Below the pieces are notes generated by a model that worked only from the letters and a program-made list of their open reading frames with translations, made no database searches and was not told where the DNA came from. This document shows positions 1 through 58,905 of a stretch of 64,000 bases of DNA, one piece after another. Positions within the stretch are counted from its first letter, which is position 1; the number at the start of each line of letters is the position of its first letter. Location: positions 98,736 through 162,735 of the forward strand of contig JAHFNS010000001.1 of assembly GCA_023267215.1 (NCBI GenBank), in the 5' to 3' direction. Made by a program: the position numbers and the translations under genes. Origin of the DNA: Candidatus Nomurabacteria bacterium (lineage in GTDB: Bacteria; Patescibacteriota; Minisyncoccia; Phycocordibacterales; UBA9973).

Positions 1-518
1 AAATTTTTGAGCTTTTAGAAGAGGGGAAGAATCTAGCATTAGTTTCAGATGCTGGTACTCCGACTATCTCTGACCCTGGAGCAATGCTTATTTCTAAAAT
101 AAAAGAAAAGTTTTCCCAGAAGACGGTCTTCGGGGAAGAACCCCGAAGACCGTCTTCTGGGGTAGAAGTTATTCCAATTCCTGGAGCTTCTGCAGTTATT
201 GCTGCACTTTCTGCTTCTGGACTTCCAACGCATGAATTCACATTTCTAGGATTTCTTCCACACAAAAAAGGAAGAGAAACTTTATTTAAAGAAATTGCTG
301 AATCAAAACGCACAATGGTTTTCTATGAATCCCCACATCGCATTTTAAAAACATTAGAATCCTTAAATAAATTTTGTCCAAATAAAAAAGTTTGTATTGC
401 TCGCGAAATCACTAAGATTTATGAAGAGTTTAAAACAGGTACACCACAAGAACTTTTAGAATATTTAAAAAAAAATCCCGTAAAACAAAAAGGGGAGTTT
501 ACAGTATTAGTTTCTTAA
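1..518 (+). CDS. rsmI: 16S rRNA 2'-O-methyltransferase RsmI, C-terminal part (5' end lies outside window)
   Basis: Frame 3 is open from the window edge. Translation gives LEEGKNLALVSDAGTPTISDPG ... VIPIPGASAV ... FYESPHR, typical RsmI motifs. Track ORF 84..518 is the internal-Met tail. Carries an in-frame 48-bp palindrome at 115..162. Confidence 0.85.
   Translation, partial: IFELLEEGKNLALVSDAGTPTISDPGAMLISKIKEKFSQKTVFGEEPRRPSSGVEVIPIPGASAVIAALSASGLPTHEFTFLGFLPHKKGRETLFKEIAESKRTMVFYESPHRILKTLESLNKFCPNKKVCIAREITKIYEEFKTGTPQELLEYLKKNPVKQKGEFTVLVS
115..162. repeat. family A GC-rich palindromic element, copy 1 (in rsmI, in-frame)
   Basis: cccagaagacggtcttcgggg-aagaa-ccccgaagaccgtcttctggg. Perfect 21-bp inverted arms. 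Confidence 0.8.
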
Positions 519-519
519 T

Positions 520-2484
520 TTACAACAAATCTTCTGGATCTACAGAGACTTCGTAGGAAAAAGGTAAAGACGAAAGTAAATCAAAAAGACGTTGGTCTAT
601 GGTTGAACCTATAGACAGGAGAGATAAAGACCACTTTTTTGGTTCTAATTTAATAAGTGCATTGGTGACATATTGGTTTTTGTTTTTAGCCATAAATCCG
701 CCGAATATGTCTGGAGCGTATTCTTTGAAAAGCTCTGCCAGCAATCTCTTTGCTTCTATAGAGCCCTCTTTATCTCCTAAATAAGTAATTTTAATAAAGC
801 GTTTATATGGAGGATAATTTAAATTTTTTCTATCTTCTAATTCTTCACGCACAAAAGGAAGCAAGTTTTCTCCCTTGACGGCAAGCAAGGCGGAATCATT
901 TTTATTTTTTGTATGAATGATTAGTTTTCTTTCAGTTAACGAAAGCATAGAGAGCAGAAGCTGAATTATTTTCTCACTCATTTTGTAATTTGGAATTGTC
1001 CAAAGCCCGTCAAAGGAAGCGATGACAGACAAATCAACTTTATTTTTTAAATAATAAAAAGCCATTTCTGTGCCGACCAATATAGAGCCGGGAGTTTCCT
1101 CAAATTCTTTTATTATTTTATTTGCCCCACTAGCCGTTTTTGCTATCTCTTTATCCAATTTAAATATTTTAACTTTTGGAAATTTTTCTTTTAACTCTTC
1201 ATATACAGTGTCTGTGCCTATACCGAGCGGCATCAAATTCCAGCTTTCACAAATAGGGCATTTAGTTTCAGGGTCTTTTTCAGTATTGCATTTATTACAG
1301 ACAAACATTCTTTTTTTACCATCACGAGACAAATACAATACCAGAGGAGCCATACATTCGTCGCAATTTATAGTTTCATTGCAATCTTTACATATAGTAT
1401 AAGTGGCTAGGCCCTTCCTTAAAGAAAATACAAAAACATTTTTTTTAGATTTTATAGTGTTTTCTATATCCTCAATGCTCTTATCTGCAAATATTTTAAA
1501 TTGAGAATTTATTTTTTCGTTTTGCGAAGAGGGCTCATCTTCTTGATTTGGATTTATTATATTTATAGATACTCTATTAAAATTGGTTCTAAAAGACATA
1601 GGGTAAACTTCGCCTAGATTTTCTGTTTCTTTTCTTGCAATTGTTTCAAAACGGAGCAATGTGTCAGCCAATATAAATTTCACATTAATTTTTGCTGCAT
1701 AAAGTTCGGCAAAAGTTCTCATATCAAAATGTGGTTTTGGAATCATTTTATAAACATTGGAACTTTCATGTTCCACTATAATAGCCCCTAAGTCTTCTCT
1801 CGGAACAGATAAGAATTGAGTAGTTCCAAGTATTAGTACTCCGTGTGTAGAATTTATTATTCTCTCATAATTTTCAAGGATTTTTTTAGGTTTTAAACTT
1901 CCATGCATAGTGAAAGTAAAATTTTCTATACCTTTAGAAAGAGCTTGCTCAAATATTTCTATGTCATACTCTGTTGGTAATATTATGAAGACAGATTTTT
2001 TGAGAGCAAAATATCCGCGAATCAAAGTTTTGTAATAAGAAATACGATCTTCTAAAGAAGCTTGCAAAAGTAATTTTTCAGTTTTAATATTTGGATTTAC
2101 AAGACGGTCTTTAAGAAATTCTATATTAGAAAATTTTACTATTTGGTCATATTTTTCCCGAAAGATAGCAGGAACAAAAGAAATTACTCCGCTGTTTTTT
2201 TTGGAAATAAAATAAGAAGAAATAGAAAGCGCAGATTCCAGAAATTCATTTTTGAAAATGGAATACTTTTTTACTTCATTTATTTTCTTTAATTTGAAAG
2301 GCATACCCTTTATGCCAGATTTTGCATTACTCAAATCTTCACAAGATATTACTAAACCTAAGATTTTTTTATTACGGATGGGTACACTGACAATACTTCC
2401 ATTTTCTATATCTTTCGCAGTAAAATAAGTCAAGTCTGTTTTGAATACTCCTTTCTGAAGTGGGATTATTGTTACAATTTTCAT
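520..2484 (-). CDS. priA: primosomal protein N' (PriA)-like with possibly degenerate helicase motifs
   Basis: 654 aa. Has the PriA-type Cys-rich region CKDCNETINCDECMAPL...CNKCN...CPICES, GIGTDTVYEEL, and a C-terminal domain. I find no GxGKT P-loop, and the DEEH position reads VEHE. Confidence 0.75.
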   Translation of the reverse strand: MKIVTIIPLQKGVFKTDLTYFTAKDIENGSIVSVPIRNKKILGLVISCEDLSNAKSGIKGMPFKLKKINEVKKYSIFKNEFLESALSISSYFISKKNSGVISFVPAIFREKYDQIVKFSNIEFLKDRLVNPNIKTEKLLLQASLEDRISYYKTLIRGYFALKKSVFIILPTEYDIEIFEQALSKGIENFTFTMHGSLKPKKILENYERIINSTHGVLILGTTQFLSVPREDLGAIIVEHESSNVYKMIPKPHFDMRTFAELYAAKINVKFILADTLLRFETIARKETENLGEVYPMSFRTNFNRVSINIINPNQEDEPSSQNEKINSQFKIFADKSIEDIENTIKSKKNVFVFSLRKGLATYTICKDCNETINCDECMAPLVLYLSRDGKKRMFVCNKCNTEKDPETKCPICESWNLMPLGIGTDTVYEELKEKFPKVKIFKLDKEIAKTASGANKIIKEFEETPGSILVGTEMAFYYLKNKVDLSVIASFDGLWTIPNYKMSEKIIQLLLSMLSLTERKLIIHTKNKNDSALLAVKGENLLPFVREELEDRKNLNYPPYKRFIKITYLGDKEGSIEAKRLLAELFKEYAPDIFGGFMAKNKNQYVTNALIKLEPKKWSLSLLSIGSTIDQRLFDLLSSLPFSYEVSVDPEDLL

Positions 2485-2521
2485 CTTTTCATTCTATCAT
2501 AAATTGTGTTATATTTACGGG

Positions 2522-3535
2522 ATGAGTATTTTTTCTAGAAAATTAGGCATAGATTTAGGAACAGCCAACACATTGGTCTTTTTGCCAGGCAAAGGTATCG
2601 TTTTAAACGAACCTTCTGTGGTAGCTGTTTCAGAACAAGACAACAAAATCTTGGCTATTGGCTTTGAAGCAAAAGACATGATAGGAAAAACGCCGGATTC
2701 CATCATCACTTATTGTCCAATGAAAGACGGAGTTATTGCAGATTATCGAGTGACAGAAGCAATGCTCAAATATTTTATAAATAAAGCTTTAGGGAAATTT
2801 AATTTATTTAAACCAGATGTGATGGTCTCTGTACCTGCTGGGGTGACTTCCACAGAACGTAGAGCTGTCGTCGAAGCAGCTATTCGCGCAGGAGCAAAAA
2901 ATGCTTATGTGGTGAAAGAGCCTATTTTAGCTGCGATAGGTGCTGGAATCCCTATTTATGAATCAAAAGGGTATATGGTTGTAGATATCGGTGGAGGTAC
3001 GACGGATGTAGCAGTAATATCTTTAGGAGGAATAGTTTCTTCTACTTCTGTAAAATGTGCTGGAAATAAAATAGATCAAGCTATCGCAGATTATATTAAA
3101 AAAACTTTCAACTTGGCGATAGGCGATAGAACAGCAGAAGAAGTTAAAATAAAAATCGGTGCAGCTGTGCCTCTCGAAGAAGAACTTCGAGTGACCATCA
3201 AAGGACGAGATTTTATTCAAGGCTTGCCACGTTCTGCTCAAGTTGGGACTAATGAAATAGTCAAAGCGATAGACGGAGAATTAAAACAAATAATAAAAGC
3301 GATCAAAGATGTATTACAAGAAACTCCACCCGAACTTGCTTCTGATATTATGGACTATGGAATTATTATGACAGGCGGTTCTTCGCAATTACGCAACCTG
3401 ACAGATTTGGTCTATAGAAAAACTGGAGTAAAAGCGACACTTGCTGAGGATGCTCTCTTTTGTGTAGCAAAAGGTACAGGTATAGCTCTGGAACATTTAG
3501 ACGTCTATAAAAAAACAGTTTTAAGTAAAAAATAA
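2522..3535 (+). CDS. mreB: rod-shape determining actin homolog MreB
   Basis: GIDLGTANTLVF N-terminus, DIGGGTTDVAVIS, GIIMTGGSS actin-fold motifs. Start placed at MSIFSRK (track ORF begins 18 nt earlier at 2504). Confidence 0.9.
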   Translation: MSIFSRKLGIDLGTANTLVFLPGKGIVLNEPSVVAVSEQDNKILAIGFEAKDMIGKTPDSIITYCPMKDGVIADYRVTEAMLKYFINKALGKFNLFKPDVMVSVPAGVTSTERRAVVEAAIRAGAKNAYVVKEPILAAIGAGIPIYESKGYMVVDIGGGTTDVAVISLGGIVSSTSVKCAGNKIDQAIADYIKKTFNLAIGDRTAEEVKIKIGAAVPLEEELRVTIKGRDFIQGLPRSAQVGTNEIVKAIDGELKQIIKAIKDVLQETPPELASDIMDYGIIMTGGSSQLRNLTDLVYRKTGVKATLAEDALFCVAKGTGIALEHLDVYKKTVLSKK

Positions 3536-3540
3536 AAATA

Positions 3541-4272
3541 ATGGGAATTTTAGAAAATATAGATAAAAATAATCTGCATCATGCTTATCTAATAGAAGGT
3601 GATAAAGAGGAAATTATACCAGAGCTTTTAAAATTTCTAAAAAATTTAGGAATAGAAACATCTCACAATCCAGATTTTTGTCAGATTACACTCGATTCTT
3701 TTAAAATTGAAGATGCTCGTAATTTAAAATCGATAGGAAACGAAAAAGGTTTTTCTGTAGGTAAAAAAGTATTTTTAATTTCAGCTAATAATTTTTTATT
3801 GGAGGCACAAAATACATTGTTAAAAATATTTGAAGAGCCGATAGAAAATACTCATTTTTTTATAATAGTGCCTAACGCAGATGTTCTTTTAAAAACTCTT
3901 GTTTCTAGATTTTATTTAATCAAAACGAAATCGGAAATGATAGATGAGTTGAAAGAAGCTGAGAAGTTTATAACTATGCCTCTTAAAAACAGGATTGATT
4001 TTATTAAGGAATTGATAACTGAAGAAGAGGAAGAAGACGAAGAAGAAACATTAGAAATAAAAAGCACTAAAGCAAAAGCTTTAAAATTTCTAAATGCGCT
4101 AGAATCTGTGCTTGTGTCAAGGATGCCCTTTGACAAAAAGATGTCAAGGGGCATCCTTGACACTAAAACTTGTTTTGCCCACATTTTCAAAGTTCGTGAA
4201 TTTATAAACCAACCAGGCTCGTCTTTAAAAACCTTAATGGAATCTGTAGCCTTAATGATTCCCAATTTTTAA
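3541..4272 (+). CDS. holB: DNA polymerase III delta' subunit-like (AAA+ clamp loader lacking a canonical P-loop)
   Basis: HHAYLIEGDKEE (delta'-type HAYLF motif), SRF arginine-finger region. 243 aa, short. 4 nt after mreB. Confidence 0.55.
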   Translation: MGILENIDKNNLHHAYLIEGDKEEIIPELLKFLKNLGIETSHNPDFCQITLDSFKIEDARNLKSIGNEKGFSVGKKVFLISANNFLLEAQNTLLKIFEEPIENTHFFIIVPNADVLLKTLVSRFYLIKTKSEMIDELKEAEKFITMPLKNRIDFIKELITEEEEEDEEETLEIKSTKAKALKFLNALESVLVSRMPFDKKMSRGILDTKTCFAHIFKVREFINQPGSSLKTLMESVALMIPNF

Positions 4273-4301
4273 CTTTTATCATTAAATGATACAATATACA
4301 T

Positions 4302-4853
4302 ATGTTATTCAACTTTTCAAATTTTAAAACAGAGCTTAATAAAATAGCTGAATTTTTAAGCAAAGAATACAGTCAATTAAACATTGGCCGAGCTTCTCCT
4401 ATGGTTTTAGATTCTATTTCTGTAGAATTTTATGGAGCAAGTCAGCCTATAAAAAACGTCGCTTCTATTTCTATAGAAGATCCAAAAACACTAAGAATCA
4501 ATCCTTGGGATAAAAATCAGATTAAAGAAATAGAGAAGGCTATCATGGCTTCAAACTTAGGGTTGTCTGTAGCTGTCGATGGTGCAGGAATAAGAGTGAT
4601 ATTTCCTCAACAAACAACAGAGAGTAGACAAAAATTAGTGAAAGTTTTGAAAGATAAATTAGAAGAAAGTAGAATAGTCGTTCGTAAAGAAAGAGAAAAA
4701 GCTTGGGATGATATTCAAAAAATGGAAAAGGAGGGGAATATGACAGAAGATGAAAAATTCAGAGCAAAGGATGAATTGCAAAAAGTTATAGATGAAATAA
4801 ATCAAAAGTTGGAAGGTGTCTTCGAGAAAAAAGAAAAAGAAGTAATCGGATAA
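4302..4853 (+). CDS. frr: ribosome recycling factor
   Basis: 183 aa. RRF-like pattern: N-terminal EFxKExxxL, GRASP, central NLG/VIFP, C-terminal coiled EKxxKDELQK. Confidence 0.85.
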   Translation: MLFNFSNFKTELNKIAEFLSKEYSQLNIGRASPMVLDSISVEFYGASQPIKNVASISIEDPKTLRINPWDKNQIKEIEKAIMASNLGLSVAVDGAGIRVIFPQQTTESRQKLVKVLKDKLEESRIVVRKEREKAWDDIQKMEKEGNMTEDEKFRAKDELQKVIDEINQKLEGVFEKKEKEVIG

Positions 4854-4855
4854 AT

Positions 4856-5944
4856 ATGAACATATTGATTTTTATAATAATTTTATTAGTTTTGGTGCTT
4901 GTTCATGAATTTGGGCATTTTTTTACTGCTAAAAGATTTGGTATTAGAGTAGATGAATTTGGTTTTGGTTTTCCTCCAAAATTATTTGGTATAAAAAAAG
5001 GGGAGACAGAATATAGTATTAATCTTCTACCAATTGGTGGATTTGTGAAAATTTTTGGCGAAGATCCAAACGAAGAAAATACAGTAGGACCAGATGCTGC
5101 TAGGAGTTTTGTAAATAAACCAAAATATAAACAAGCAATAGTTCTTTTCGCTGGAGTCTTTGCGAATTTTTTACTTGCTTGGCTTTTGTTTTCTATTGGT
5201 TTTATATCAGGACTTCCTACTTCTGTTGGTAGTGAGCCGAAAGATTATAAAATGGAGAATGTGCATCTTGTTGTTCTTTCTGTTTTGCCAAATTCTCCAG
5301 CTCTAGCTGCTGGTCTAAAAACCGGAGATAAAATAGTTTATATAAAAAGTGGAGATGCTGTCACAGATCAAATCAGCCCTGAGACTGTCAAATCTTTTGT
5401 TGCTTTAGGTAAACAATTAGACATGGCATATCTTCGTGGCAATGACCCGACTTATAATATGATCCAGGTTATTCCAAAAGATACTAATGGTACTTATGCA
5501 ATAGGTATTTCTATGGATCAGATAGGGACCGTTAAATTGCCCTTTTTTAATGCCTTTTGGGAGGGTTTAAAATTAGACTGGTCTGTTACAGAAGGTACTG
5601 TTGTGGGGCTTTATACGCTCATTGTAGGGGGTATTATGGGTAAAGGAAGCTTTGCGAACGTTACTGGTCCTGTCGGAATGGTGGGTATCGTAGGTAATGC
5701 GTATCAATTTGGTTTTGTATATTTATTCTCTTTCGCTGCTTTAATTTCAGTGAATTTGGCGATAATAAATCTGATTCCATTTCCAGCCCTAGATGGTGGT
5801 CGTCTCTTCTTTTTACTTATTGAAAAAATAAAAGGTTCTCGTATGAATCCTAAATTTGCAAATACTGCAAACATGGTGGGCTTTGCAATTTTAATTATTC
5901 TCATGCTTCTTGTCACTTATCATGATGTAGTTAAATTATTTTGA
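4856..5944 (+). CDS. rseP: RIP metalloprotease RseP (site-2 protease, M50) with PDZ domain
   Basis: HEFGHFFTAKRFG (HExxH) in TM1, PDZ-like LAAGLKTGDKIV, C-terminal LDGG motif (ALDGGRLFF). Confidence 0.85.
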   Translation: MNILIFIIILLVLVLVHEFGHFFTAKRFGIRVDEFGFGFPPKLFGIKKGETEYSINLLPIGGFVKIFGEDPNEENTVGPDAARSFVNKPKYKQAIVLFAGVFANFLLAWLLFSIGFISGLPTSVGSEPKDYKMENVHLVVLSVLPNSPALAAGLKTGDKIVYIKSGDAVTDQISPETVKSFVALGKQLDMAYLRGNDPTYNMIQVIPKDTNGTYAIGISMDQIGTVKLPFFNAFWEGLKLDWSVTEGTVVGLYTLIVGGIMGKGSFANVTGPVGMVGIVGNAYQFGFVYLFSFAALISVNLAIINLIPFPALDGGRLFFLLIEKIKGSRMNPKFANTANMVGFAILIILMLLVTYHDVVKLF

Positions 5945-6003
5945 CCTCACCTAGAGCCCCTCTCCTTAATAAGGAGAGGGTGGCCAAAGGTCGGGTGAAG
6001 TGT
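5945..6003. repeat. family B palindromic element, copy 1 (intergenic rseP / Cys-rich gene)
   Basis: gacctcacc-tagag-cccctctcctt-aat-aaggagaggg-tgg-ccaaaggt-cgggtgaagtg. Core has perfect 10-bp arms around aat. Confidence 0.7.
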
Positions 6004-6007
6004 ATTT

Positions 6008-7726
6008 ATGAAATCAGAAACTAAAACATGTCAGAATTGCAAACAAGACTTCACTATCGAGCCAGAAGATTTTAATTTTTATGAAAAAATAAAAGTTCCA
6101 CCACCGACATTTTGTCCAGAATGTAGAAGACAAAGACGTTTTGTTTGGCGAAATGAACGGGTGTTATATCGTCGTACTTGTGGTTTATGTAATAAAAATG
6201 TTATTGCAATATATCACGAATCTTCACCTTTTCCTGTGTATTGTCGAGAATGTTGGTATGGAGATAAATGGGATCCTACTTCTTATGGTAGAGAGTATGA
6301 TATGTCTAAATCATTTTTTGAACAATATAAAGAATTATCTAATGTTGTTCCAAGATTGGCTATGTGGCAAAGAAATTGTATAGATTCAGATTACTCAAAT
6401 ATGGCTGGAGAATCAAAAAATGTTTATTTATCTGTTTCGGTTGTAAAAAATTCAGAAAATATTTTTTATTCAAAATCCGTAGATAAATCAAAAGACATTG
6501 TAGATTGTTTAAATATTATAAATGGATCTGAAAGTTTATATGAAAATGTCGAAGCACAGAGTAATTATAATTCACAATATCTTTTATTATGTAGAAGTTG
6601 TATGGATTCTTATTATTTGGTTGATTGCGTAAATTGTAGTAACTGTTTTTTGTCTTATAATTTAAGGAATAAACAATTTTGTATAAACAACAAAGAATAT
6701 AAAAAGGAAGATTATTTTAGAGAGGTAGAAAAGTTCAATTTAAAAAGTAGAGCTTCTCGTCAAGTTTTATTAAAAAGATTTGATGAGATAAAAAAGAAAT
6801 CCATTTATCGTTTTGGAAATATTAATAGGTGTGTGAATGTTACAGGCAACAATCTTTTAAATGTTAAAAATGGTAAAAGTTGTTTTGAAATTTATAACAT
6901 AGAAAATGTAAAATATTGCTATAGAGCTTTTGATATTAAAGATTCTATGGATTTTGACTATGGCGGATGGTCAGAATTACTTTATGAATATACGACAGGT
7001 GCGTTACATGATTACAATGTTAAGTTTAGTTATTCCGCAATGGATTCTGTGAGAAATGCTGATTATACAGAATCTTGTAGAAATTGTTCTAATATTTTTG
7101 GTTGTATTTCTCTCGTAAACACAGAAAATACAATATTAAATAAGGTTTATCCCGAAGAGGAATACAAAAAACTTCGTGAAGAAATTATCAAACAAATGAA
7201 TGAAGTACCATATATTGATAAAGTAGGTAGGGTTTATAAATATGGCGAATTTTTCCCAATAGAGTTATCACCCTGGGATTATAATGAGACTTTGGCCCAA
7301 GAATTTTTTCCTATTACAGAAGATACTGCGAAAGAAAAAGGATATCCATGGCGTCATTCAAACATAAAAAAATTTGAAATTACAATTACTTCAGAAAAAA
7401 TTTCTGATAATATAGATGACGTCAATGAAAATATTTTAAAAGAAGTTTTAGGATGTGCCCATAAGGGGAATTGTAGTCATCAATGTAATGTTGCTTTTCG
7501 TATAACGGACTATGAATTTAAATTCTATAAAAAACATAACATACCGTTACCTATTTTGTGTTCAAATTGTAGACATTATGAGAGATTCAAAGTTATGCCA
7601 GCATTAGATTTGTGGCATAGAAAATGTATGAAAGAGGGTTGTGATAATGAATTTGAGACAGCTTATGCTCCCGACAGGCCGGAGATTGTTTATTGTGAGA
7701 GATGTTATCAACAGGAAGTGTATTAA
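6008..7726 (+). CDS. large Cys-rich (multi zinc-ribbon) protein of unknown function with duplicated N/C-terminal module
   Basis: 572 aa with many CxxC pairs. N-terminal CQNCKQDFTIEPEDFNFYEKIKVPPPTFCPECRRQRRF recurs C-terminally as CNVAFRITDYEFKFYKKHNIPLPILCSNCRHYERF. Sits between rseP and mraY. Confidence 0.7.
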   Translation: MKSETKTCQNCKQDFTIEPEDFNFYEKIKVPPPTFCPECRRQRRFVWRNERVLYRRTCGLCNKNVIAIYHESSPFPVYCRECWYGDKWDPTSYGREYDMSKSFFEQYKELSNVVPRLAMWQRNCIDSDYSNMAGESKNVYLSVSVVKNSENIFYSKSVDKSKDIVDCLNIINGSESLYENVEAQSNYNSQYLLLCRSCMDSYYLVDCVNCSNCFLSYNLRNKQFCINNKEYKKEDYFREVEKFNLKSRASRQVLLKRFDEIKKKSIYRFGNINRCVNVTGNNLLNVKNGKSCFEIYNIENVKYCYRAFDIKDSMDFDYGGWSELLYEYTTGALHDYNVKFSYSAMDSVRNADYTESCRNCSNIFGCISLVNTENTILNKVYPEEEYKKLREEIIKQMNEVPYIDKVGRVYKYGEFFPIELSPWDYNETLAQEFFPITEDTAKEKGYPWRHSNIKKFEITITSEKISDNIDDVNENILKEVLGCAHKGNCSHQCNVAFRITDYEFKFYKKHNIPLPILCSNCRHYERFKVMPALDLWHRKCMKEGCDNEFETAYAPDRPEIVYCERCYQQEVY

Positions 7727-7729
7727 ATT

Positions 7730-7770
7730 CCCCTAAGCTGGGCTTAGGGGACAGAAGCCCAGCTTAGGGG
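7730..7770. repeat. family C GC-rich nested palindrome (intergenic Cys-rich gene / mraY)
   Basis: cccctaagc-tgg-gcttagggg-acag-aagcccagcttagggg. The left 21-mer is itself palindromic, and its reverse complement recurs 3'. Confidence 0.65.
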
Positions 7771-7798
7771 AAGTCTAAAAATATGTTAATATAACTAT

Positions 7799-8854
7799 AT
7801 GCTTTTGAATTTGATTAAAATTTTTTTACCAATGATGACAGCTTTGCTAATAGGGCTTTTCATTACGCCATTTGCCACTCATTTTTTTTATAAATACAAA
7901 ATGTGGAGAAAATATTCTCGTGGTGATACGGTTGGTACTTTAGATTTTAAAAAAATTCATAATAGCGAAGAAGAACTTAAAACACCTAGAGTTGGTGGAA
8001 TAATTATTTGGGTTTCAATCCTTTTTTCTGTTTTGATTTTTTATTTTATTTCAATTTTTTTCCCATCAGATAATACTGAAAAAATTAATTTTTTAAGCAG
8101 AAATCAAACTCTAATTCCTCTTTTAGTTTTAATTTTTGGTTCTTTATTAGGTTTAACGGATGATTTGATTCAAATTTATGGAAAAGGAAAAATTGCTCAT
8201 GATGATAAATCTTGGCGAAAATGGAAAGCGTTTTTAGTATTTCTTATTTCTTTTTTGATTGGACTTTGGTTTTATTATAAATTAGGAATGGTCTCAATTC
8301 ATATTCCTTTTAATGGGGATTTGTATTTGGGGATTTTAATTATTCCATTTTTCATAATTGTTTCTTTGGCCACTTTTTCTGGAGGAATTATTGATGGTTT
8401 AGATGGACTCTCAGGAGGAGTACTTGCCTCGATTTTTTCAGCTTATTCTGTGATAGCATTTATGAATAATCAAATCGATATTGCTGCATTTTCAGCTGTA
8501 GTAACGGGAGCAATTTTGGCATTTCTTTGGTTTAATATTCCACCGGCTAGGTTTTATATGGGCGAAACAGGAATTATAGGTCTCACTATTACTTTGGCCA
8601 CCTTGGCTTTTTTAACTGATACCGTTTTGATTTTACCTATTGTGGCAATGCCTTTAGTTGTGACTTCTTTATCTGTTATTATTCAAATGATTTCTAAAAA
8701 AATGAGGAATGGTAAAAAAGTTTTTAAAATATCCCCACTGCATCATCATTTTGAAGCTTTAGGTTGGTCTCCTTATAAAGTGGTTATGCGTTATTGGATT
8801 TTTTCAATCTCTTTTTCAATTATAGGAATAATTTTAACTGTGATAAGTAGATAA
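7799..8854 (+). CDS. mraY: phospho-N-acetylmuramoyl-pentapeptide transferase MraY
   Basis: Polytopic membrane protein. DDxxD-type (TDDLIQ), ISPLHHHFEALGW (MraY HHH signature). Confidence 0.85.
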   Translation: MLLNLIKIFLPMMTALLIGLFITPFATHFFYKYKMWRKYSRGDTVGTLDFKKIHNSEEELKTPRVGGIIIWVSILFSVLIFYFISIFFPSDNTEKINFLSRNQTLIPLLVLIFGSLLGLTDDLIQIYGKGKIAHDDKSWRKWKAFLVFLISFLIGLWFYYKLGMVSIHIPFNGDLYLGILIIPFFIIVSLATFSGGIIDGLDGLSGGVLASIFSAYSVIAFMNNQIDIAAFSAVVTGAILAFLWFNIPPARFYMGETGIIGLTITLATLAFLTDTVLILPIVAMPLVVTSLSVIIQMISKKMRNGKKVFKISPLHHHFEALGWSPYKVVMRYWIFSISFSIIGIILTVISR

Positions 8855-14685: not shown

Positions 14686-15021
14686 ATGAAATTTACAATG
14701 AAAAAAGTAAATAAACAAAAAGGCGGTATAAGTATTTTGGGAATTATATTTTTAGGATTAATTTTAATTTTAATACTTAGTTATTTTAATATAAGTGTCA
14801 GATCAGTGGTAGAAAGTCCTACTGGACAAGATAACCTTAATTATGTCGGGGGAGGGACTAGAAATCTATGGAATGACTATCTCAAGAAACCAGCCGATTA
14901 TTTATGGAATGATATATTTGTAAATATCTTTTGGAAATCTTTTATTTCAAATATGGAACGTATTAGAGATGGCAAACCAACAGATTACGAAAATGCTGCT
15001 CCATTGTTTAATAGGAGTTAA
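14686..15021 (+). CDS. hypothetical secreted/membrane-anchored protein
   Basis: N-terminal hydrophobic segment GISILGIIFLGLILILIL. No known motif. Confidence 0.4.
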   Translation: MKFTMKKVNKQKGGISILGIIFLGLILILILSYFNISVRSVVESPTGQDNLNYVGGGTRNLWNDYLKKPADYLWNDIFVNIFWKSFISNMERIRDGKPTDYENAAPLFNRS

Positions 15022-15129
15022 GTGTTGAGGGGACAGTCTTTTTGGGCTTATCTTTTTTGATAGTTTAATTAACATAGTGTCGCACAATATATGTTTTGGA
15101 CATGGTCTATCTGAAATAATGCAGTAATA

Positions 15130-15510
15130 TTATTTACACGAGTTAGAAAGCACATAGCCGGATTTCTCTGCCTCTAGAGACGTTGCAAAATATATTCTAT
15201 TTTCTTCTTTAATAGTTTTTCCTGCTCCACAACTTATAGAATAATATTTACTCCCCCGACTTGAAGCGAAAAAATTTCCAGAGTTTGATTTTTGAGAATC
15301 ATTTGAATTTTGAGGTAAAGTGGCTAAATTTTGATCTATGGCACCTATAGCATTGGCTTCTCCTCCGTTATATTCGATCTTAAGGCCCGAAGGCATTTCT
15401 TTTGATAGTCTACCTAATTCAAATGAGCCTAAACCGACCAAAATAATAATGATAATTACCAATATATCTTTACCTTTGTCGCTCTCTATAAATGACTTGA
15501 TTTTTTCCAT
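15130..15510 (-). CDS. membrane-anchored protein with C-terminal Ada-like (Ada_Zn_binding-like) domain
   Basis: Start taken at MEKIKSF to avoid overlap with rpmA. TM helix ILVIIIIILVGLG. C-terminus KYYSISCGAGKTIKEENRIYFATSLEAEKSGYVLSNSC resembles the YxxPSCxxxKxIxxENRVxFxSxEEAxxAGYRPCKxC family but keeps only 2 Cys. Confidence 0.5.
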   Translation of the reverse strand: MEKIKSFIESDKGKDILVIIIIILVGLGSFELGRLSKEMPSGLKIEYNGGEANAIGAIDQNLATLPQNSNDSQKSNSGNFFASSRGSKYYSISCGAGKTIKEENRIYFATSLEAEKSGYVLSNSCK

Positions 15511-15582
15511 ATAATTGTTTATACTTGATTTTACGTTGATTTGTAAGTAAATTTTAACATTTAATAATATAAAAATAAACAT

Positions 15583-15855
15583 ATGGCACATAGAAAAGCT
15601 GGCGGAACCGCGAAAAACTTAAGAGATTCAAATCCAAAATATCTTGGTACTAAACTTGCTGATGGACAAAAGGCACAACCTGGTTCTATTATTATCCGCC
15701 AACGCGGTACAGTGATTATGGCTGGTAATAACGTATCCATGGGCAAAGATCACACCTTATTTGCTTTAAAAGCTGGTACAGTCAAATTTGGCTCTAGACG
15801 TAAGATATCTTTTAATGGTAAAACGGTAGTTAAAAAGGTAGTAAATGTAGTTTAA
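15583..15855 (+). CDS. rpmA: 50S ribosomal protein L27
   Basis: [22 protein letters not shown]...RQRGT N-terminus is diagnostic for L27. Confidence 0.9.
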
Positions 15856-16295
15856 ATCCTTTCTATAATAAGCTTAAATGAAGATTTCTTGTTTTTTATA
15901 AGAATCGGAATTTCAAATTCCCCTATTTCTTTTATTTGTTTTTCTAAGACAATAAATTTTTCAGCTATTTCTGCATGACATTGTTTACTCATAGCCTCAA
16001 CTATCATTTTAGGATGAATAGCAGAAAACAGATGTCCTTTATCATCTGATTTTGCTTTTATATTGATAATCTTACCCTTTATCTCTTCTAAATTTTTCAT
16101 CAAAAGATCTTCTTGGACTTCCCTCTCTATTACAATTTCTTTTTTGTGTCTTTCGATTTCAGTTACTGCTTTTGCTGTTGCTAGTGTTGCCAATTTTTTA
16201 GGAAATAAAAAATTTATGGCATAGCCGTCATTTATTTCTTTTATGTCATATTTTTTTCCTACCCTTGGAACATCTTGTAAGAAAATTATTTTCAT
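15852..16295 (-). CDS. rplI: 50S ribosomal protein L9
   Basis: MKIIFLQDV...[25 protein letters not shown]-domain and a C-terminal domain. 147 aa. Confidence 0.85.
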
Positions 16296-31881: not shown

Positions 31882-32550
31882 TTATAAATCACTTTTTCCA
31901 ATATTACATACTGAGCAAAGTGTCTGTAAATTTTCTAAAACAGTTTCTCCACCTTTCGCCCATGCCTTTATGTGGTCAACATGCAGAATAATACTTGGGT
32001 CAGTTGCAGGTGACCTCCCACAATTTTTACATTTAAAATTGTCTTGTCTCATAACAACAAAGCGGAGTCTCCAATTTATTGTTCTTGATGTTTTATGTTT
32101 TGTGCTTGGCTCAATTCTAAATTTTTTTACTGCTTCTTCAGAAGAGACATCTTCTTCTTTGTTCATATATGTAACAAATTTCTCTAATGCTTTATGCCAA
32201 CCACCAAAACGTCTTGCGTAGGTATCAACACTGTATTTTGAAAATGGTTTCAGAATATCCCCATATTTAGGTTGTTTGCCAAGTTTTATCCAAATTTCTT
32301 CTAGATTCTTAAACAACTCTTCTTCTGGGAGATTCATTGGTGTTCTATTATCTTTAAGATTGGCTTTTTCTAACGCAGTATGCCAACTTCCAAAACGACG
32401 AATATAAGTTGTACTATGAAATTTCCCTTTTTTATCTTGTTCATCACGAGTAATTGAAGGTTTATTCAACATTAAAGCAAGTCCCCTTAAATCAGCGACC
32501 AGTTCTTCGTCTGTAACACCACGATGATAATCTTCGAGTTCAAATTTCAT
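31882..32550 (-). CDS. HNH endonuclease with two N-terminal HNH-associated repeats
   Basis: C-terminal CKNCGRS...HVDHIKAWAKGG...NLQTLCSVCN (HNH). Repeats RRFGSWHTALEKANL / RRFGGWHKALEKFV. Start taken at MKFELEDY to avoid overlap (track ORF runs to 32664). Confidence 0.8.
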   Translation of the reverse strand: MKFELEDYHRGVTDEELVADLRGLALMLNKPSITRDEQDKKGKFHSTTYIRRFGSWHTALEKANLKDNRTPMNLPEEELFKNLEEIWIKLGKQPKYGDILKPFSKYSVDTYARRFGGWHKALEKFVTYMNKEEDVSSEEAVKKFRIEPSTKHKTSRTINWRLRFVVMRQDNFKCKNCGRSPATDPSIILHVDHIKAWAKGGETVLENLQTLCSVCNIGKSDL

Positions 32551-32584
32551 AATTTTATTATACCAAAATAACGTCTTTCTAGTG

Positions 32585-33154
32585 TTATTGTTCAGCAATC
32601 TCTTCAATAGATTCTCTGGTAATTCTAATTTTTTTTCCAGTCGGAAGAGTGATAACCGATTCAATTTTTAGAATTAATTCTAAAGGTTCTAATTGGTTAT
32701 CTTCTACTCGAATTTCTCCTGTTTTCTCATCAAGCACAACATGAGCTTTTTCAGAATTTCCATCTCGTTTGCCAATTATTAAATGCATATCGCCAACTTC
32801 TTTGGAGCGCGATTCAATAAATAGTCCCTCGGCGTCCAATCGATTTTTAAAAGTTTTGGTTGAGCTCTTTATATGATTCAAGATTTCATCTATAAAAATT
32901 CTCCAAATCTCAAGCCTTGTGTGTGCAGTCATTACATTATGAAAACCTGGTTTAAGTTGTGTTCTCAATCCACTGTTTAACTTTTTAAACTTTAGTTGTA
33001 AAATTTCATCATCTAAATTTTTTACAATATCAGTAAGCTCAGACCTAATTTTAGATTCAACGCTTTCTAATCTTTCTCTCTCTAAAAGATCTTGACCGCC
33101 CAATAAATAGCATCTATCTATTTCTTGTAATAATAATTTTAAAATATGTTCCAT
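32585..33154 (-). CDS. hypothetical protein (189 aa)
   Basis: ORF between the HNH gene and tRNA-Gln. No motif recognised. Confidence 0.45.
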   Translation of the reverse strand: MEHILKLLLQEIDRCYLLGGQDLLERERLESVESKIRSELTDIVKNLDDEILQLKFKKLNSGLRTQLKPGFHNVMTAHTRLEIWRIFIDEILNHIKSSTKTFKNRLDAEGLFIESRSKEVGDMHLIIGKRDGNSEKAHVVLDEKTGEIRVEDNQLEPLELILKIESVITLPTGKKIRITRESIEEIAEQ

Positions 33155-33188
33155 ATATTTGACGCATCTCGAGCAATGATAAAATCAA

Positions 33189-33476
33189 TTAACCTTTTAC
33201 AAAAGTTATAATGACAAGTGCTATTGTAGCCAATGCAAGTATGCCTGTAGCAATAGCTAAAATCCAGGTAGCACGAACAAGTGCATCGGTGTGTTTGTCT
33301 GAAGAACTTGATGCTTTCTCAATCGCGTCTTTTGCGTAACTCAAAGCCGTCGATGTTTTTGAGCCTGAATTAAATATAGCAACTGTTAGTTTATGGATTG
33401 CACGATTTATGCCTGTACCAACAGTACCTCCATTTTGATTTATATCGTCCCAGCCATCTAATTCAAAATTTCCCAT
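33189..33476 (-). CDS. small tail-anchored membrane protein
   Basis: 95 aa, single C-terminal TM (ILAIATGILALATIALVIITFV). Confidence 0.4.
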   Translation of the reverse strand: MGNFELDGWDDINQNGGTVGTGINRAIHKLTVAIFNSGSKTSTALSYAKDAIEKASSSSDKHTDALVRATWILAIATGILALATIALVIITFVKG

Positions 33477-33553: not shown

Positions 33554-33627
33554 TGGCTGGGAGGCTTGGAATCGAACCAAAATTGATCGCTTCAAAGGCG
33601 ACTGTCCTACCGTTAGACGACCTCCCA
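33554..33627 (-). tRNA. tRNA-Gln (anticodon UUG), CCA encoded
   Basis: Reverse complement reads TGGGAGG TC GTCT AACGGTA GGAC A GTCGC CTTTGAA GCGAT CAATT TTGGT TCGATTC CAAGC CCTCCCA G CCA. It has U1-A72, G73, GG in the D-loop, a TTCGATT T-loop, and anticodon loop CU-UUG-AA. Confidence 0.8.
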
Positions 33628-36454: not shown

Positions 36455-37462
36455 TCAAATTTTTTTTAAAAAATCACGAATTATTTTTTCTACTTCTTTA
36501 GAATTTTCTGTCTCCATTAATTTTGCACGTAATTCTTTCGCACCAGGAAAATCATTTACATACGCTTTGAAATGTTTTTTCATGACAGCAAAACTTTTAT
36601 GTTTTGGTATCGCAAGCTCTTTATCAAAAAGTTGAGTGTGTTCCATGAGAACTTCTAGTTTTTCTTCTACCCTCTCCTTTTCAAGGAGAGGGGTTGGGGG
36701 TGAGGTGAATACCCAAGGATTTCCAAAAACTCCCCTACCTATCATTATTCCATCACAACCATACTTTTCTGCTTTCTCTTCCGCATCTTTTAAATCTTTA
36801 ACATCACCATTGCCAATGAGCAAAATATCTTTGCCACTTTTTTTAATAAGCTCTTTTATTTTTTTAATGTAATCCCAATTTGCAGGAACGAGAGATAATT
36901 CTTTTGTTGTTCGTAAATGAATCGTCAAAGCAGAAATATCTTCCTTTAATAATTCTGGTATCCAATTATCAATATCTTCCCTATTGAAACCAACTCTCGT
37001 TTTGACAGACACTGGGATATGAAGCCCTGCAGATTTTATTCCAGCATGAGCAGCCTGTATTATTTTTCTAGCAAGTTGTGGTGTCTTTATCAAACCCGAG
37101 CCAGCACCTTGAGCAACGACAGATTTGTCTGGACAACCCATATTTATATCTATTCCATCAAAACCGAGACTAGCAATATAACTACAAGCTTTTTCCATAT
37201 TCTCCGGGTTAGCACCGAAAACTTGAGCGATGATAGGTCTCTCAGCTTCAGAATATTTTAAAATGTGAGAAAGTTTCTTTTTGGCGAGTTTATTACACAA
37301 GCCATCAGCCGCCACAAACTCTGTCCAGAAAACGACGCTGTTTCTATTTTCTCTGTTCTTACTATATTTCGCCAAGATACGACGAAAAGCAATGTCAGTG
37401 ACATCCGACATCGGTGCAAGGCAGAAAAATGGTTTTTTAAGTTTTCTCCAGAAATTTTGCAT
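36455..37462 (-). CDS. tRNA-dihydrouridine synthase (DusB-like)
   Basis: FCLAPMSDVTDIAFRRI, MIGRGVFGNPWVF, TIM-barrel FMN motifs. Carries an in-frame palindromic element (TSPPTPLLEKERV) right after GNPWVF. Confidence 0.85.
   Translation of the reverse strand: MQNFWRKLKKPFFCLAPMSDVTDIAFRRILAKYSKNRENRNSVVFWTEFVAADGLCNKLAKKKLSHILKYSEAERPIIAQVFGANPENMEKACSYIASLGFDGIDINMGCPDKSVVAQGAGSGLIKTPQLARKIIQAAHAGIKSAGLHIPVSVKTRVGFNREDIDNWIPELLKEDISALTIHLRTTKELSLVPANWDYIKKIKELIKKSGKDILLIGNGDVKDLKDAEEKAEKYGCDGIMIGRGVFGNPWVFTSPPTPLLEKERVEEKLEVLMEHTQLFDKELAIPKHKSFAVMKKHFKAYVNDFPGAKELRAKLMETENSKEVEKIIRDFLKKI
36655..36725. repeat. family B palindromic element, copy 3 (inside dus, in-frame)
   Basis: ttcacctcaccccc-aa-cccctctcctt-ttc-aaggagaggg-tagaggaaaaa. 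Read in-frame as FTSPPTPLLEKERVEE on the minus strand. Confidence 0.7.
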
Positions 37463-40938: not shown

Positions 40939-40992
40939 ACAAAGTGCCGAAAGGCTTCGAGAAACCCCGCTTCTGCGGGGTTTCGATTTTCT
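40939..40992 (+). ncRNA. candidate ~55-nt small RNA (GNRA-tetraloop hairpin + terminator hairpin)
   Basis: gccGAAAggc hairpin then aaaccccgc-ttct-gcggggttt followed by tcgattttc. Lies between the promoter above and the convergent mazF-like stop codon. Putative only. Confidence 0.3.
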
Positions 40993-41380
40993 ACAAAAAT
41001 AGTTTAAGTTTTTGTTTTATTTCATTAAAAAGATGGTCAGGCATTACATAGATATCTCTTTTTAATCTTTTCACACTAATCAATCTCATCTGAGCAAGTA
41101 TAGCTGACACTTTTTGATTATTTGGATCAATATAATTAAAATAAAAATCAAATTTCTTTTGTTTAGTTGAAAGTGGGACACACCAAAACATATGATTATT
41201 AAATTTCTTTACAATTAATACTGGACGAGAAAAACTATCTTCACTACCATTCTGCTCATATCCAATATTTCTACCTAAAGAACACATCCAGACTTCTCCT
41301 TCTTTAGGAAAATTATCAGGCATATTTTCTCTGGTATTTATTTTCTTTTTTAATTCGTTCCAATTATCAAATTCTTCCAT
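40991..41380 (-). CDS. MazF/PemK-family toxin (mRNA interferase)-like protein
   Basis: GEVWMCSLGRNIGYEQNGSEDSFSRPVLIVKKFNNHMFWCVPLSTKQK aligns with MazF GDLIWVDFDPTKGSEQAGHRPAVVL...CVPCTTQSK. No adjacent antitoxin ORF. Confidence 0.6.
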   Translation of the reverse strand: MEEFDNWNELKKKINTRENMPDNFPKEGEVWMCSLGRNIGYEQNGSEDSFSRPVLIVKKFNNHMFWCVPLSTKQKKFDFYFNYIDPNNQKVSAILAQMRLISVKRLKRDIYVMPDHLFNEIKQKLKLFL

Positions 41381-41507: not shown

Positions 41508-43781
41508 ATGAAATTACTCATTGTTGAATCACCATCAAAAGCAAAGACTATAGAAAAATATTTAGAAGGCGCATACACAGTGCGTGCTTCTATTGGACAT
41601 ATTCGTGATTTACCTAAATCAAACAAACAAGCGATAGATATCGAAGGTGGTTTCATTCCACATTATGAAATTTCAAAAGGTAAAGAAAAAGTTGTTCATG
41701 AACTTCAATCACTCGGAGAAAAAGCCACAGAGATATTGTTAGCGACAGACCCCGACCGTGAAGGAGAAGCTATAGCTTGGCATATAGAAGAACTTTTAAA
41801 GAAAGATAAAAAAATAAAAGCTAAAGCGAAACGTGTGACATTCCATGAAATAACAAAGGAAGCCGTAGAAGAAGCATTGAAACATCCTCGAAACATAGAC
41901 ACTGCTTTGAGAAAAGCTCAAGAAGCAAGACGTGTCCTCGACAGACTCGTAGGATATGATCTGTCTGGTTTGATATGGAAAAAAGTACGCTATGGACTCT
42001 CTGCAGGACGTGTTCAATCCCCTGCACTCCGCATAATAATGGAACGCGAAAGAGAAATCCGTGCTTTTGTGCCAGAGAAATATTGGAGAATATTAGGACT
42101 TTTTGAAACACCCAAAAAAGGAAAACTTACTTTAAATTGTTCTATTGAGCCAAGAGATGAAAAAGTTGTAGAAAAAATAATGGAAGAAGGCAATAGTAAA
42201 GATTGGTTTGTAACTGATGTCAAAGAGGGAGAGCAAAAGAGAGTTCCTCGTGCTCCGTTCACTACTTCCACATTACAACAGACAGCGAGCTCTCGCCTTG
42301 GATATTCCCCTTCTAGGACAATGCAAATAGCTCAAAAACTTTATGAAGCTGGACATATCACATACATGCGTACAGATAGTACAAATTTATCTCTTGTCGC
42401 TCAATCACAGATAGTTTCTATGATTGAAAAAAAATATGGGAAAAATTTTGCACAAGCAAGAATTTATAAAACAAAATCAAAAAATGCCCAAGAAGCACAC
42501 GAAGCTATTCGCCCAACTCATATAGAAAATATGTTGGCTGGCACAGATGAACAACAAAGACTTTATAGATTAATCTGGGAGCGTGCTGTTTCTTCACAAA
42601 TGGCAGATGCGAAATTATTGAAGACAAAAATAAGTGCGAATATAGCTTACAGCCCCAAAGACGGTCTTCGGGGAGCTCCCCGAAGACCGTCTTTGGGGCA
42701 ATTCGAATTCCCAGACTTCACAGCTGTCGGTTCCAGAATTCTTTTCTCTGGTTGGCTAGAAGTTGATAGAGATAGTGTCGGAGAAGATTTTGAATTACCA
42801 GAAGTAAAGAAGGGAGACAAATTAAAATTGTTAAATCTCGTTAATGAAGAAAAATTTACCGAACCACCAAATAGATATAGTGAAGCAGGCCTCATTAAAG
42901 AACTCGAGGCACGAGACATAGGTAGACCTTCTACTTATGCTTCCATAATGAAAACATTGGAAGACAGAGAATATGTCAGGAAAGAAGGCAAAACTCTATT
43001 CCCTACAGACGTCGGTGAAGTCGTGTCAGACTTCTTAGAAAATAATTTTGCAAATTATATCTCTGATACATTCACAGCTGAGATGGAAGACGAGCTAGAT
43101 GAAATATCTCGTGGTGAACGTGAATACGAAAAAACATTAAAAGATTTCTATGGACCATTCTTAAAAGAAATAAAAATAAAAGAAAAGTTAGAAAAAGCGA
43201 CAAATTTAGGAGAAGCACCAGAAGGTATAGTGTGTCCAAAATGTGGCAGTAAAATGATAGTGAAGCTTTCTCGTGCAGGAAAATTCTATTCTTGTATTAA
43301 ATATCCAGATTGTGACGGAGCCCTTATGATAGACGGTACAGAATTGAAAGGTCCAAAAGAAACTGGTGAGATGTGTCCCCAATGTGGACATAAGAGTGGA
43401 GGAAAAAAAGGAAATGGGGGTGGAGGAAAATTGATCATACGCGAGAGACGTGATGGCACTGGCACATTCATTTCTTGTTCTCGTTATCCAAAATGTAAGT
43501 TCATAAAAAAAGACGAAGCAGAAGAAGCAAAAAAAAGAACTGGGGTTATCTGTCCAACTTGCAAAAAAGGAGATATTTCTGAGCGCAAAGGAAGATTTGG
43601 AGTATTTTATTCCTGTTCAAACTATCCTGATTGTAAATTTGCAATTAAAGCAAAACCCACTGGTAAAACATGTGATAAATGTGGATCTTTAATGATGCAA
43701 GGTACAAAAACTATCCCTGATAGATGCAGTAATAATACATGTTTAAATTATCGACCTGATAAATTAAATAAAATTAAATAA
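41508..43781 (+). CDS. topA: DNA topoisomerase I with C-terminal zinc-ribbon repeats
   Basis: MKLLIVESPSKAKTIEKYLEG...GHIRDLP (TOPRIM), active-site region HITYMRTDS, four CxxC...CxxC zinc ribbons at the C-terminus. Carries an in-frame 46-bp palindrome at 42653..42698. Confidence 0.9.
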   Translation: MKLLIVESPSKAKTIEKYLEGAYTVRASIGHIRDLPKSNKQAIDIEGGFIPHYEISKGKEKVVHELQSLGEKATEILLATDPDREGEAIAWHIEELLKKDKKIKAKAKRVTFHEITKEAVEEALKHPRNIDTALRKAQEARRVLDRLVGYDLSGLIWKKVRYGLSAGRVQSPALRIIMEREREIRAFVPEKYWRILGLFETPKKGKLTLNCSIEPRDEKVVEKIMEEGNSKDWFVTDVKEGEQKRVPRAPFTTSTLQQTASSRLGYSPSRTMQIAQKLYEAGHITYMRTDSTNLSLVAQSQIVSMIEKKYGKNFAQARIYKTKSKNAQEAHEAIRPTHIENMLAGTDEQQRLYRLIWERAVSSQMADAKLLKTKISANIAYSPKDGLRGAPRRPSLGQFEFPDFTAVGSRILFSGWLEVDRDSVGEDFELPEVKKGDKLKLLNLVNEEKFTEPPNRYSEAGLIKELEARDIGRPSTYASIMKTLEDREYVRKEGKTLFPTDVGEVVSDFLENNFANYISDTFTAEMEDELDEISRGEREYEKTLKDFYGPFLKEIKIKEKLEKATNLGEAPEGIVCPKCGSKMIVKLSRAGKFYSCIKYPDCDGALMIDGTELKGPKETGEMCPQCGHKSGGKKGNGGGGKLIIRERRDGTGTFISCSRYPKCKFIKKDEAEEAKKRTGVICPTCKKGDISERKGRFGVFYSCSNYPDCKFAIKAKPTGKTCDKCGSLMMQGTKTIPDRCSNNTCLNYRPDKLNKIK
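42653..42698. repeat. family A GC-rich palindromic element, copy 2 (in topA, in-frame)
   Basis: ccccaaagacggtcttcgggg-agct-ccccgaagaccgtctttgggg. Perfect 21-bp arms, near-identical to copy 1. Confidence 0.8.
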
Positions 43782-58304: not shown

Positions 58305-58420
58305 AAATATATACTTATAGTATAGTCTATTTACTGTTTATTGTCAAGTAAAACGTAAATATGAGGTAAAAACAGCCTATATTTACGTTTTTTAATTTTA
58401 ACCTTTAAATTCTTTGGCAT

Positions 58421-58904: not shown

Positions 58905-58905
58905 G

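Follow-up and report, generated by a model that had tools for sequence, protein, structure and literature searches.

Rickettsia palindromic elements (RPEs; Ogata et al. 2000) are palindromic repeats of several families which are inserted in-frame into unrelated housekeeping genes and for which no dedicated transposase is known (PMC10969869, PMC3733652), each being about 150 bp long and encoding a conserved peptide (PMC10969869). In this article we analyse a shorter palindromic element, designated family A, of which one copy lies in rsmI and a second one in topA within a stretch of DNA from Candidatus Nomurabacteria (64,000 nt, positions 98,736-162,735 of the forward strand of contig JAHFNS010000001.1). 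This whole stretch is called the window, and coordinates refer to it (Table 1) unless another contig is named; L labels denote DNA stretches from the searched collections and P labels homologous proteins.

Further palindromic systems are relevant for comparison. Yeast mitochondrial GC clusters carry AG/TAG terminal repeats, taken as target-site duplications, include in-frame insertions in var1, and form families that merge and shuffle (PMC8811140). In the AT-rich mitochondrial genome of Magnusiomyces, elements derived from GC clusters ('byp') are skipped by the ribosome, according to the passage of PMC8811140 which cites Lang et al. 2014. Repetitive extragenic palindromes and the bacterial interspersed mosaic elements built from them (REP/BIME) have a palindromic unit of 20-40 bp and fall into GTAG- and CGTC-tagged super-families, the CGTC type being without an associated transposase (PMC3733652). 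The repetitive hairpin elements (RHEs) of sponge mitochondria are hairpin-forming repeat families that invade compact genomes and were analysed in intergenic regions, according to the abstract of PMC2800124. On the evidence given below, the explanation that we favour, with a probability of roughly 0.7, is that family A is a selfish or neutral palindromic repeat, similar to RPEs and GC clusters in its behaviour, which was inserted at the DNA level in AT-rich Paceibacterota and is tolerated and translated in protein loops.

Palindromic insertions in rsmI and topA

The left arm of copy 1 is CCCAGAAGACGGTCTTCGGGG and the right arm CCCCGAAGACCGTCTTCTGGG; with 21 nt each they are exact reverse complements around the AAGAA loop, as the initial annotation had reported. 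The same annotation placed the palindrome at 115..162 with a length of 48 bp, which has to be shortened by one base to 47 bp, since the G at 162 has no pairing partner. Its estimate of 65-70% GC in a genome of about 30% GC is valid for the arms (14/21, 67%) and for the background (0.27-0.37, about 31% in the window), while the entire element has 62% (29/47). It had also stated that the rsmI frame is left unbroken, and indeed the partial open reading frame (ORF) runs without a stop across the element, which is read as SQKTVFGEEPRRPSSG and corresponds to residues S104-G119 of the complete 237-aa RsmI protein P0121. Minor synonymous codons, each accounting for at most 16% of the codons of its amino acid in the window ORFs, make up 11 of the 16 codons of this insert. 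The Logan assembly of run SRR14366760 (L037), which may share reads with the assembly of the window, is 100% identical to positions 1-6092, palindrome included.

The near-identical copy announced for topA was also found in-frame, read as SPKDGLRGAPRRPSLG; each of its arms departs from copy 1 at two positions, where the opposite arm carries the compensating change. When the window was searched with the 21-mer arm, allowing up to 3 mismatches, only copy 1 and 42653-42698 were matched, where 100 dinucleotide shuffles gave an expectation of zero. Folded as RNA, the rsmI copy reached -46.2 kcal/mol (z = -9.2) and the topA copy -49.3 kcal/mol (z = -10.6); none of 200 shuffles was equally stable. If translated, the inserts would be expected to yield the peptides TVFGEEPR and RPSSGVEVIPIPGASAVIAALSASGLPTHEFTFLGFLPHK from RsmI, and DGLR and RPSLGQFEFPDFTAVGSR from TopA.

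Alignment with E. coli RsmI (5hw4) opened a 16-residue gap exactly at FSQKTVFGEEPRRPSS, and alignment with E. coli TopA (4rul) a 17-residue gap at YSPKDGLRGAPRRPSLG; the residues of the inserts were missing from these unrelated orthologues, and empty alleles were present in close Paceibacterota relatives (84-85% identical). The closest TopA and RsmI homologues bear names that assign the organism to Paceibacterota / 'Ca. Nomurabacteria'. At the DNA level the rsmI linker was recovered in several states: empty in L031 (AAAGAAAGTTTA-AATGAT-GTAGAAGTT), half-filled by a lone 23-bp palindrome, TCCCCGAAGACCGTCTTCGGGGA, in L030 (gene 2493-3188 of that stretch), with the full element in the window and with a decaying full element in L029. 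Similarly, the topA linker was empty in L036 (15 nt, SSAPD), held perfect copies in the window and in L026, and a copy without the inner stem in L027; among the proteins, P0004 is the closest putative empty topA allele. This comparison of alleles showed that the palindromes of rsmI and topA are insertions relative to the orthologues, as had been proposed for the former. The inner stem has disappeared from both the L027 (topA) and the L029 (rsmI) copies, as would be expected of non-essential DNA, which should decay.

Half elements, that is a single palindrome of 21-23 bp encoding SPKTVFGE, were seen at the rsmI site of at least 7 relatives (P0124, P0125, P0127, P0129, P0130, P0132 and P0143), where they outnumber the cluster representatives with the full dimer.

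Two other origins were considered and rejected. Assembly artefacts or adaptor contamination are rejected because the element recurs in-frame at orthologous positions in assemblies of several different samples and sources. An excision footprint would derive from the local flanks, hence it could not be identical at unrelated loci.

In the AlphaFold2 model of RsmI (mean pLDDT, the predicted local distance difference test, 77) the element forms a coil (residues 104-119) between a helix (90-103) and a strand (120-126), with pLDDT below 50 at 106-116. For TopA, where the model is a poor one on the whole (mean pLDDT 60), the value reaches about 83 on the flanking strands (369-378 and 404-413) and remains below 50 on the element (382-397). 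These models suggest that the inserts would be located in surface loops and would be compatible with the fold. We take both sites to be near domain junctions, which would be the linker that joins the two tetrapyrrole-methylase half-folds in RsmI and the D3/D2 junction in TopA.

Distribution, symmetry and relatives of family A

In order to find further copies the exact core pattern was scanned against 185,579 species genomes and likewise against metagenomes, and the identity of the genes was assigned by Pfam. The species genomes returned 17 stretches, of which two were true family A members, both in a low-GC metagenome-assembled genome (MAG) labelled Ca. Saccharibacteria: the element is in-frame in gltX in L007 and stands between rplN and rplX in L016. 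A further, variant copy of L016 is placed between rplF and rplR; about 15 kb on two contigs were read from the MAG, CAYIUH01, and three family A copies were found there. The other 15 matches, together with L019, were set aside as unrelated GC-rich hairpins having only the inner GGTCTTCGGGG stem in common; the genomes of 14 of these 15 have 57-74% GC and the remaining one 44%, and L019 likewise comes from a high-GC genome. Seven low-GC metagenome contigs carried family A (L018, L020, L021, L022, L023, L024 and L025). In atpG it occupies the same site in two lineages (L018/L025 and L021) whose AtpG proteins are 69% identical, and this site is empty in a third AtpG (L034, 65% identical); the further sites were in-frame in gatB (L022) and murD (L024) and upstream of a T2SS-F gene (L020), L023 being a duplicate of L016. 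Altogether, at least 6 unrelated housekeeping genes contain family A in-frame and 3 sites are intergenic (6 of 9 distinct sites intragenic), always on low-GC contigs resembling the Candidate Phyla Radiation (CPR), hence the family extends well beyond the two copies of the window.

Viral contigs gave a single match, a high-GC chance hairpin, and no copy was found in the phage and plasmid collections scanned. When seven concatenated translations of the element were compared with a set of 5.8 billion proteins, none of the 1238 word-sharing candidates reached E <= 10, the peptide being too short for HMMER statistics. A DNA uptake sequence, which was also considered, is excluded by the density (2 per 64 kb) and the length of the element.

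Family A elements are 43-53 bp long and free of stop codons in all six frames. They are read as PKTVFGE.PRRPSSG in rsmI and atpG, as PEDGLRG.SPKTVFG in gatB and murD and as PLRRSSG.FPEDRLRG in gltX, and the 4-nt loop of the topA copy combines two of these three frames; since the family is read in three frames, the peptide is not the conserved object. When 13 copies were aligned, 95.6% of the cells were paired, with one G-U against 12 plain mismatches, and five pairs (15 cells) were changed on both sides, transversions among them; the covariation score was reached by none of 500 shuffles and collapsed in slid controls. Even the orthologous topA copies of the window and L026 differ by double compensated changes (CCCCA../..TGGGG versus CCCTG../..CAGGG). 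Because the covariation is of Watson-Crick type, includes transversions and is nearly without G-U, we infer that the symmetry is kept at the DNA level, by arm-to-arm templating or re-insertion, and not by selection on an RNA fold.

The arms are themselves nearly palindromic, that of copy 1 being CCCAGAAGAC-G-GTCTTCGGGG. They follow the general scheme CCCC-GA-AGAC-S-GTCT-TC-GGGG and self-pair at 9-10 of 10 positions in three copies (P <= 0.0005) and at 8 of 10 in L016b (P about 0.0075). Self-complementary arms were also present in the unrelated in-gene families C (CCAGACGTTGGACGTCTGG), E (TGCGGAAGCCTTGCTTTCGCG) and F (CCCCTTCACCAGGAGAAGGGG) of related contigs, and that of family B (GTGTCAAGGATGCCCTTTGACA) was borderline (7/10, P about 0.04); self-complementarity was not found in the arms of two other hairpins tested (intergenic, window 7728; L018, 6559). 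As the arms are near-palindromic and the unit occurs alone in the rsmI of L030, the 47-bp form is probably an inverted dimer of a palindromic unit of about 21 bp.

The length of the linkers was compared among the 120 nearest cluster representatives of each protein. The distribution was bimodal for TopA, peaking at 5 residues (41 proteins) and at 15-21, and for RsmI the modes were 5 (17 proteins) and 17 (27). At least 14 residues were found in 52 of 120 TopA linkers (about 43%) and 73 of 120 RsmI linkers (about 61%). Palindromes of families A (window), C and E (L033, L035) were confirmed in DNA at the topA linker and of families A (window) and D (L034) at the rsmI linker, where the family B peptide also occurs. 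Judged from these occupants, the two linkers are hot spots used by several unrelated palindrome families. There are two palindrome-occupied sites in atpG, and the window has at least 5 in-gene palindromes, in rsmI (A), holB (B), dus (D), topA (A) and miaA (D).

The likeness to RPEs, which had been pointed out in the initial annotation, stands as an analogy based on described features and not as membership. Family A shares with RPEs the reduced AT-rich bacterial genome, the stable hairpin, the stop-free in-frame position in housekeeping genes, the polymorphic multi-copy distribution, the absence from orthologues, the compatibility with the protein fold and the existence of several families. It differs in being a perfect hairpin of 43-53 bp instead of about 150 bp, an inverted dimer of a 21-bp unit which has three frames and no single peptide, and in its host phylum (Patescibacteria/CPR). 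Furthermore, the re-use of the same linker by several families is not described for RPEs in the sources consulted. RPEs number in the tens per genome, in unrelated genes; the corresponding counts for family A are two in the 64-kb window and three in about 15 kb of the MAG CAYIUH01. GC clusters are similarly short GC-rich palindromes of many families, placed between genes and in-frame in AT-rich genomes and polymorphic between strains, but they are organellar and eukaryotic and have the AG/TAG repeats, where no such duplication was seen here; byps are skipped by the ribosome, whereas the elements analysed here always preserve the frame. With REP/BIME they have in common that inverted pairs of units fold into a larger hairpin and that some copies are intragenic. 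However, among 11 copies the unpaired terminal GTAG/CGTC tag is missing (GTAG stands only after the rsmI copy and CGTC inside the stem), the stem is GC-rich instead of starting with an A-T pair, the location is mostly intragenic, the density is low and no REP-associated tyrosine transposase (RAYT) was found in the window ORFs scanned. Miniature inverted-repeat transposable elements have terminal inverted repeats related to a parent insertion sequence (IS) and a target-site duplication; here the entire element is one hairpin, and neither such a duplication nor, in the window ORFs scanned, an IS was detected. RHEs are likewise hairpin repeat families of compact genomes, the difference being the in-frame position in bacterial housekeeping genes. 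Since the size and peptide of RPEs, the end tags of REPs and the target-site duplication of GC clusters are all lacking, family A was not assigned to any of the three.

Explanations for the elements

According to the preferred explanation, a selfish or neutral repeat, copies would land anywhere and within genes only frame-keeping ones in permissive linkers would survive, to be transcribed and translated as a flexible loop of 16 residues in which Pro, Arg, Gly and Ser are abundant. The perfection of the palindromes might be maintained by a correction in which one arm serves as template for the other (via a hairpin, a cruciform or template switching), or by repeated re-insertion. Spreading would need a trans-acting factor, or a replication or repair route, not encoded beside the copies. 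The distribution of family A suggests that it is mobile.

Several observations weigh against this explanation. Target-site duplications were absent at the 11 copies inspected (direct repeats of 2-8 nt were missing at 10 of them, and the remaining one had a chance-level 2-nt match), there was no conserved flank, and the boundaries of the insertion differ between alleles. No transposase, RAYT, IS200/IS605-type or IS gene was found among the 20 less obvious window ORFs scanned, where the sole nuclease-type ORFs encode an HNH homing endonuclease and an Exo_endo_phos protein. The density is low, with two copies in 64 kb. The copies from the collections were selected by the exact core pattern, thus the conservation of the core is partly built in, and translation of the insert is a prediction. 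Neither the very frequent occupation of the two linkers in relatives nor the near-identical elements at the same atpG site in hosts of 69% identity, the latter an observation biased by the exact-match search, would be expected of a mildly harmful random inserter. Linker occupancy and atpG recurrence leave room for site targeting or for a benefit.

It is possible, although we regard it as rather unlikely, that Paceibacterota have a so far unrecognised system in which many 'palindrome-of-palindromes' families are targeted to, or kept at, a few linker loops of essential proteins, with turnover of the families. Such a system could be driven by transposase-independent spread (hairpin-templated doubling of the unit, hairpin-targeted replacement) or by a hairpin that is useful at these linkers, for instance in ribosome pausing and folding, or as a cruciform or protein-binding site.

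A functional mRNA hairpin at linkers between protein units or between cistrons, acting through ribosome pausing during co-translational folding, mRNA half-life or as an RNase III site, appears improbable. It would account for the extreme stability (about -46 to -49 kcal/mol), for the perfect stems with compensatory changes between the topA copies of the window and L026, for the rare codons, for the two copies between ribosomal protein genes, and for the long linkers in about 43% (topA) and 61% (rsmI) of the nearest clusters with unrelated palindrome families in them, because any stable hairpin would suffice at one linker. On the other hand, a single G-U pair beside 12 plain mismatches, together with compensated transversions, is unlike selection at the RNA level. 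Close relatives that have the same proteins often carry the empty allele, and the decayed copies of L027 and L029 persist in retained genes. Moreover, only tRNAs reached the Rfam gathering thresholds, with no family at the element, where generic hairpins appeared below threshold, namely miRNA precursor models and Wolbachia WsnRNA46, which scored 23.9 bits where the cutoff is 65.

Still less probable is a DNA binding site, in which four alternating 10-bp half-sites (CCCCGAAGAC) would form two adjacent palindromic operators, or a cruciform. The cognate protein, of the host or of a mobile element, could for example be a recombinase, a factor of the nucleoid or of DNA topology, or a protein related to restriction-modification. 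The nested palindromes, which have statistical support in families A, C, E and F (borderline in B), and the purely Watson-Crick symmetry agree with it, as does the recurrence of the element at one atpG site in hosts that are 69% identical. The core AAGACGGTCTTCGGGG/CCCCGAAGACCGTCTT also agrees, being unchanged in 10 of the 13 copies, which come from hosts with 31-42% GC. This invariance, however, was largely imposed by the exact-match pattern, and the core diverges in the copies found via protein homology (L027, L029). Several unrelated families behave alike, so many cognate proteins would be needed; the density is low, the presence among close relatives is patchy, and no candidate gene for a binding protein adjoins any copy.

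A local origin without mobility, in which template switching or an inverted duplication creates each palindrome within a hypervariable linker, would agree with the half elements at rsmI, consistent with doubling in place, and with the missing target-site duplication and the ragged boundaries; it is very improbable as a full explanation, because a process in place cannot yield the same sequence of about 47 nt in at least 6 unrelated genes and 3 intergenic sites with unrelated flanks, and at most it might apply to growth from unit to dimer after arrival. That the insert is left untranslated, by byp-like ribosome bypass or by removal from the mRNA, is hardly credible in spite of the very stable hairpin, the rare codons and the GC-cluster-derived precedent (PMC8811140, in the passage citing Lang et al. 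2014), since bypass needs no stop-free frame and one is kept at rsmI, topA (3 lineages), atpG (2 lineages), gltX, gatB and murD.

If the preferred explanation of a selfish or neutral insertion holds, RPE-like behaviour would not be confined to intracellular Alphaproteobacteria and organelles, having arisen or persisted elsewhere as well. The genomes of CPR/Patescibacteria are tiny and streamlined; in agreement with the statement of the initial annotation, our literature search found no report on CPR, Patescibacteria or Parcubacteria in which such elements, or selfish DNA within essential genes, are described. The inserts would represent a natural experiment on which protein loops tolerate 16 additional residues, and the empty, half and full alleles might serve as strain-level markers. 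Very stable hairpins within genes might, at least in principle, interfere with assembly and gene calling, and also with CPR phylogenies built from alignments of marker proteins such as TopA, AtpG, GltX and GatB. The nested architecture, the Watson-Crick-only covariation and the re-use of linkers may also offer clues to the spread of transposase-less palindromes such as RPEs and GC clusters.

Other palindrome families and neighbouring features

Table 1. Coordinates of the palindromes, their host genes and neighbouring features in the window.
Feature	Position	Strand	Description
rsmI, 3' part	3..518	+	16S rRNA C1402 2'-O-methyltransferase; PF00590 TP_methylase, E 1.9e-14; window begins within the gene
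Family A palindromic element, copy 1	115..161	no strand	arms 115-135 and 141-161, loop 136-140 (AAGAA)
topA	41508..43781	+	type IA DNA topoisomerase I, 757 aa; element = S382-G397
Family A palindromic element, copy 2	42652..42699	no strand	24-nt arms without spacer; core arms 42653-42673 and 42678-42698 around AGCT
Family B palindrome	4114..4163	no strand	22-nt arms, GC-rich; in-frame in holB-like ORF 3541..4272
Family D short palindrome	36670..36692		CCCTCTCCTT(A)-loop-(T)AAGGAGAGGG; in-frame in dus (ORF 36455..37462, minus), PTPLLEKERV
Family D, sister copy	5958-5980		intergenic
Family D, sister copy	about 47868-47895		N-terminus of miaA (NPLLNKERG)
Cysteine-rich ORF	6008..7726		572 aa, many CxxC pairs
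Hairpin	7726-7774		18-20 bp, GC-rich, 9-nt loop
HNH homing-endonuclease ORF	31882-32664	minus	HNH and HNH_repeat
Region with HNH ORF	31882-33476		HNH ORF, then two ORFs without Pfam match
tRNA-Gln	33554-33627		adjoins the preceding region
PemK/MazF-type toxin ORF	40991-41380	opposite to topA	assigned by Pfam; directly upstream of topA
Region with Fic ORFs	57068-63879		Fic-domain ORFs 57417-58304 and 60725-61900

The family B palindrome of the holB-like ORF has one G-U/mismatch, folds with -42.2 kcal/mol and is read as VSRMPFDKKMSRGILDT; in other lineages its peptide, CQRASLT.VSRMPLD, was seen at the rsmI hot spot (e.g. P0150, P0151, P0164, P0178, P0181). The right arm of family D resembles a Shine-Dalgarno sequence, and this family is also present in the atpG and rsmI of L034. 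A single atpG of L021 holds both a family A and a family C palindrome, with two more C copies in the same 9-kb contig, apparently outside long ORFs (palindromes at 1806-1852, 2151-2195, 8202-8245 and 8959-9003 of L021).

The hairpin which directly follows the stop codon of the cysteine-rich ORF has arms that are not self-complementary, and it is probably an ordinary terminator or mRNA-end hairpin. This ORF matches no Pfam family above threshold and keeps its position beside an M50 peptidase gene in the ERZ27297709 contig, whose proteins are the same as those of the window. The region from the HNH ORF towards tRNA-Gln looks like a small mobile or variable island. Besides its two Fic-domain ORFs, the region near the end of the window contains two DUF1905 ORFs, an ArsR-type helix-turn-helix protein and a YgjP-like metallopeptidase, as well as a fragment similar to the C-terminal end of a HindI-like type I restriction subunit, and represents a possible defence or toxin region. 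Genes are oriented plus to about 15 kb, minus at 16-39 kb and plus at 40-48 kb, and the GC skew changes its sign together with them, at about 15000-16000 and about 40000, so that it tracks the direction of transcription.

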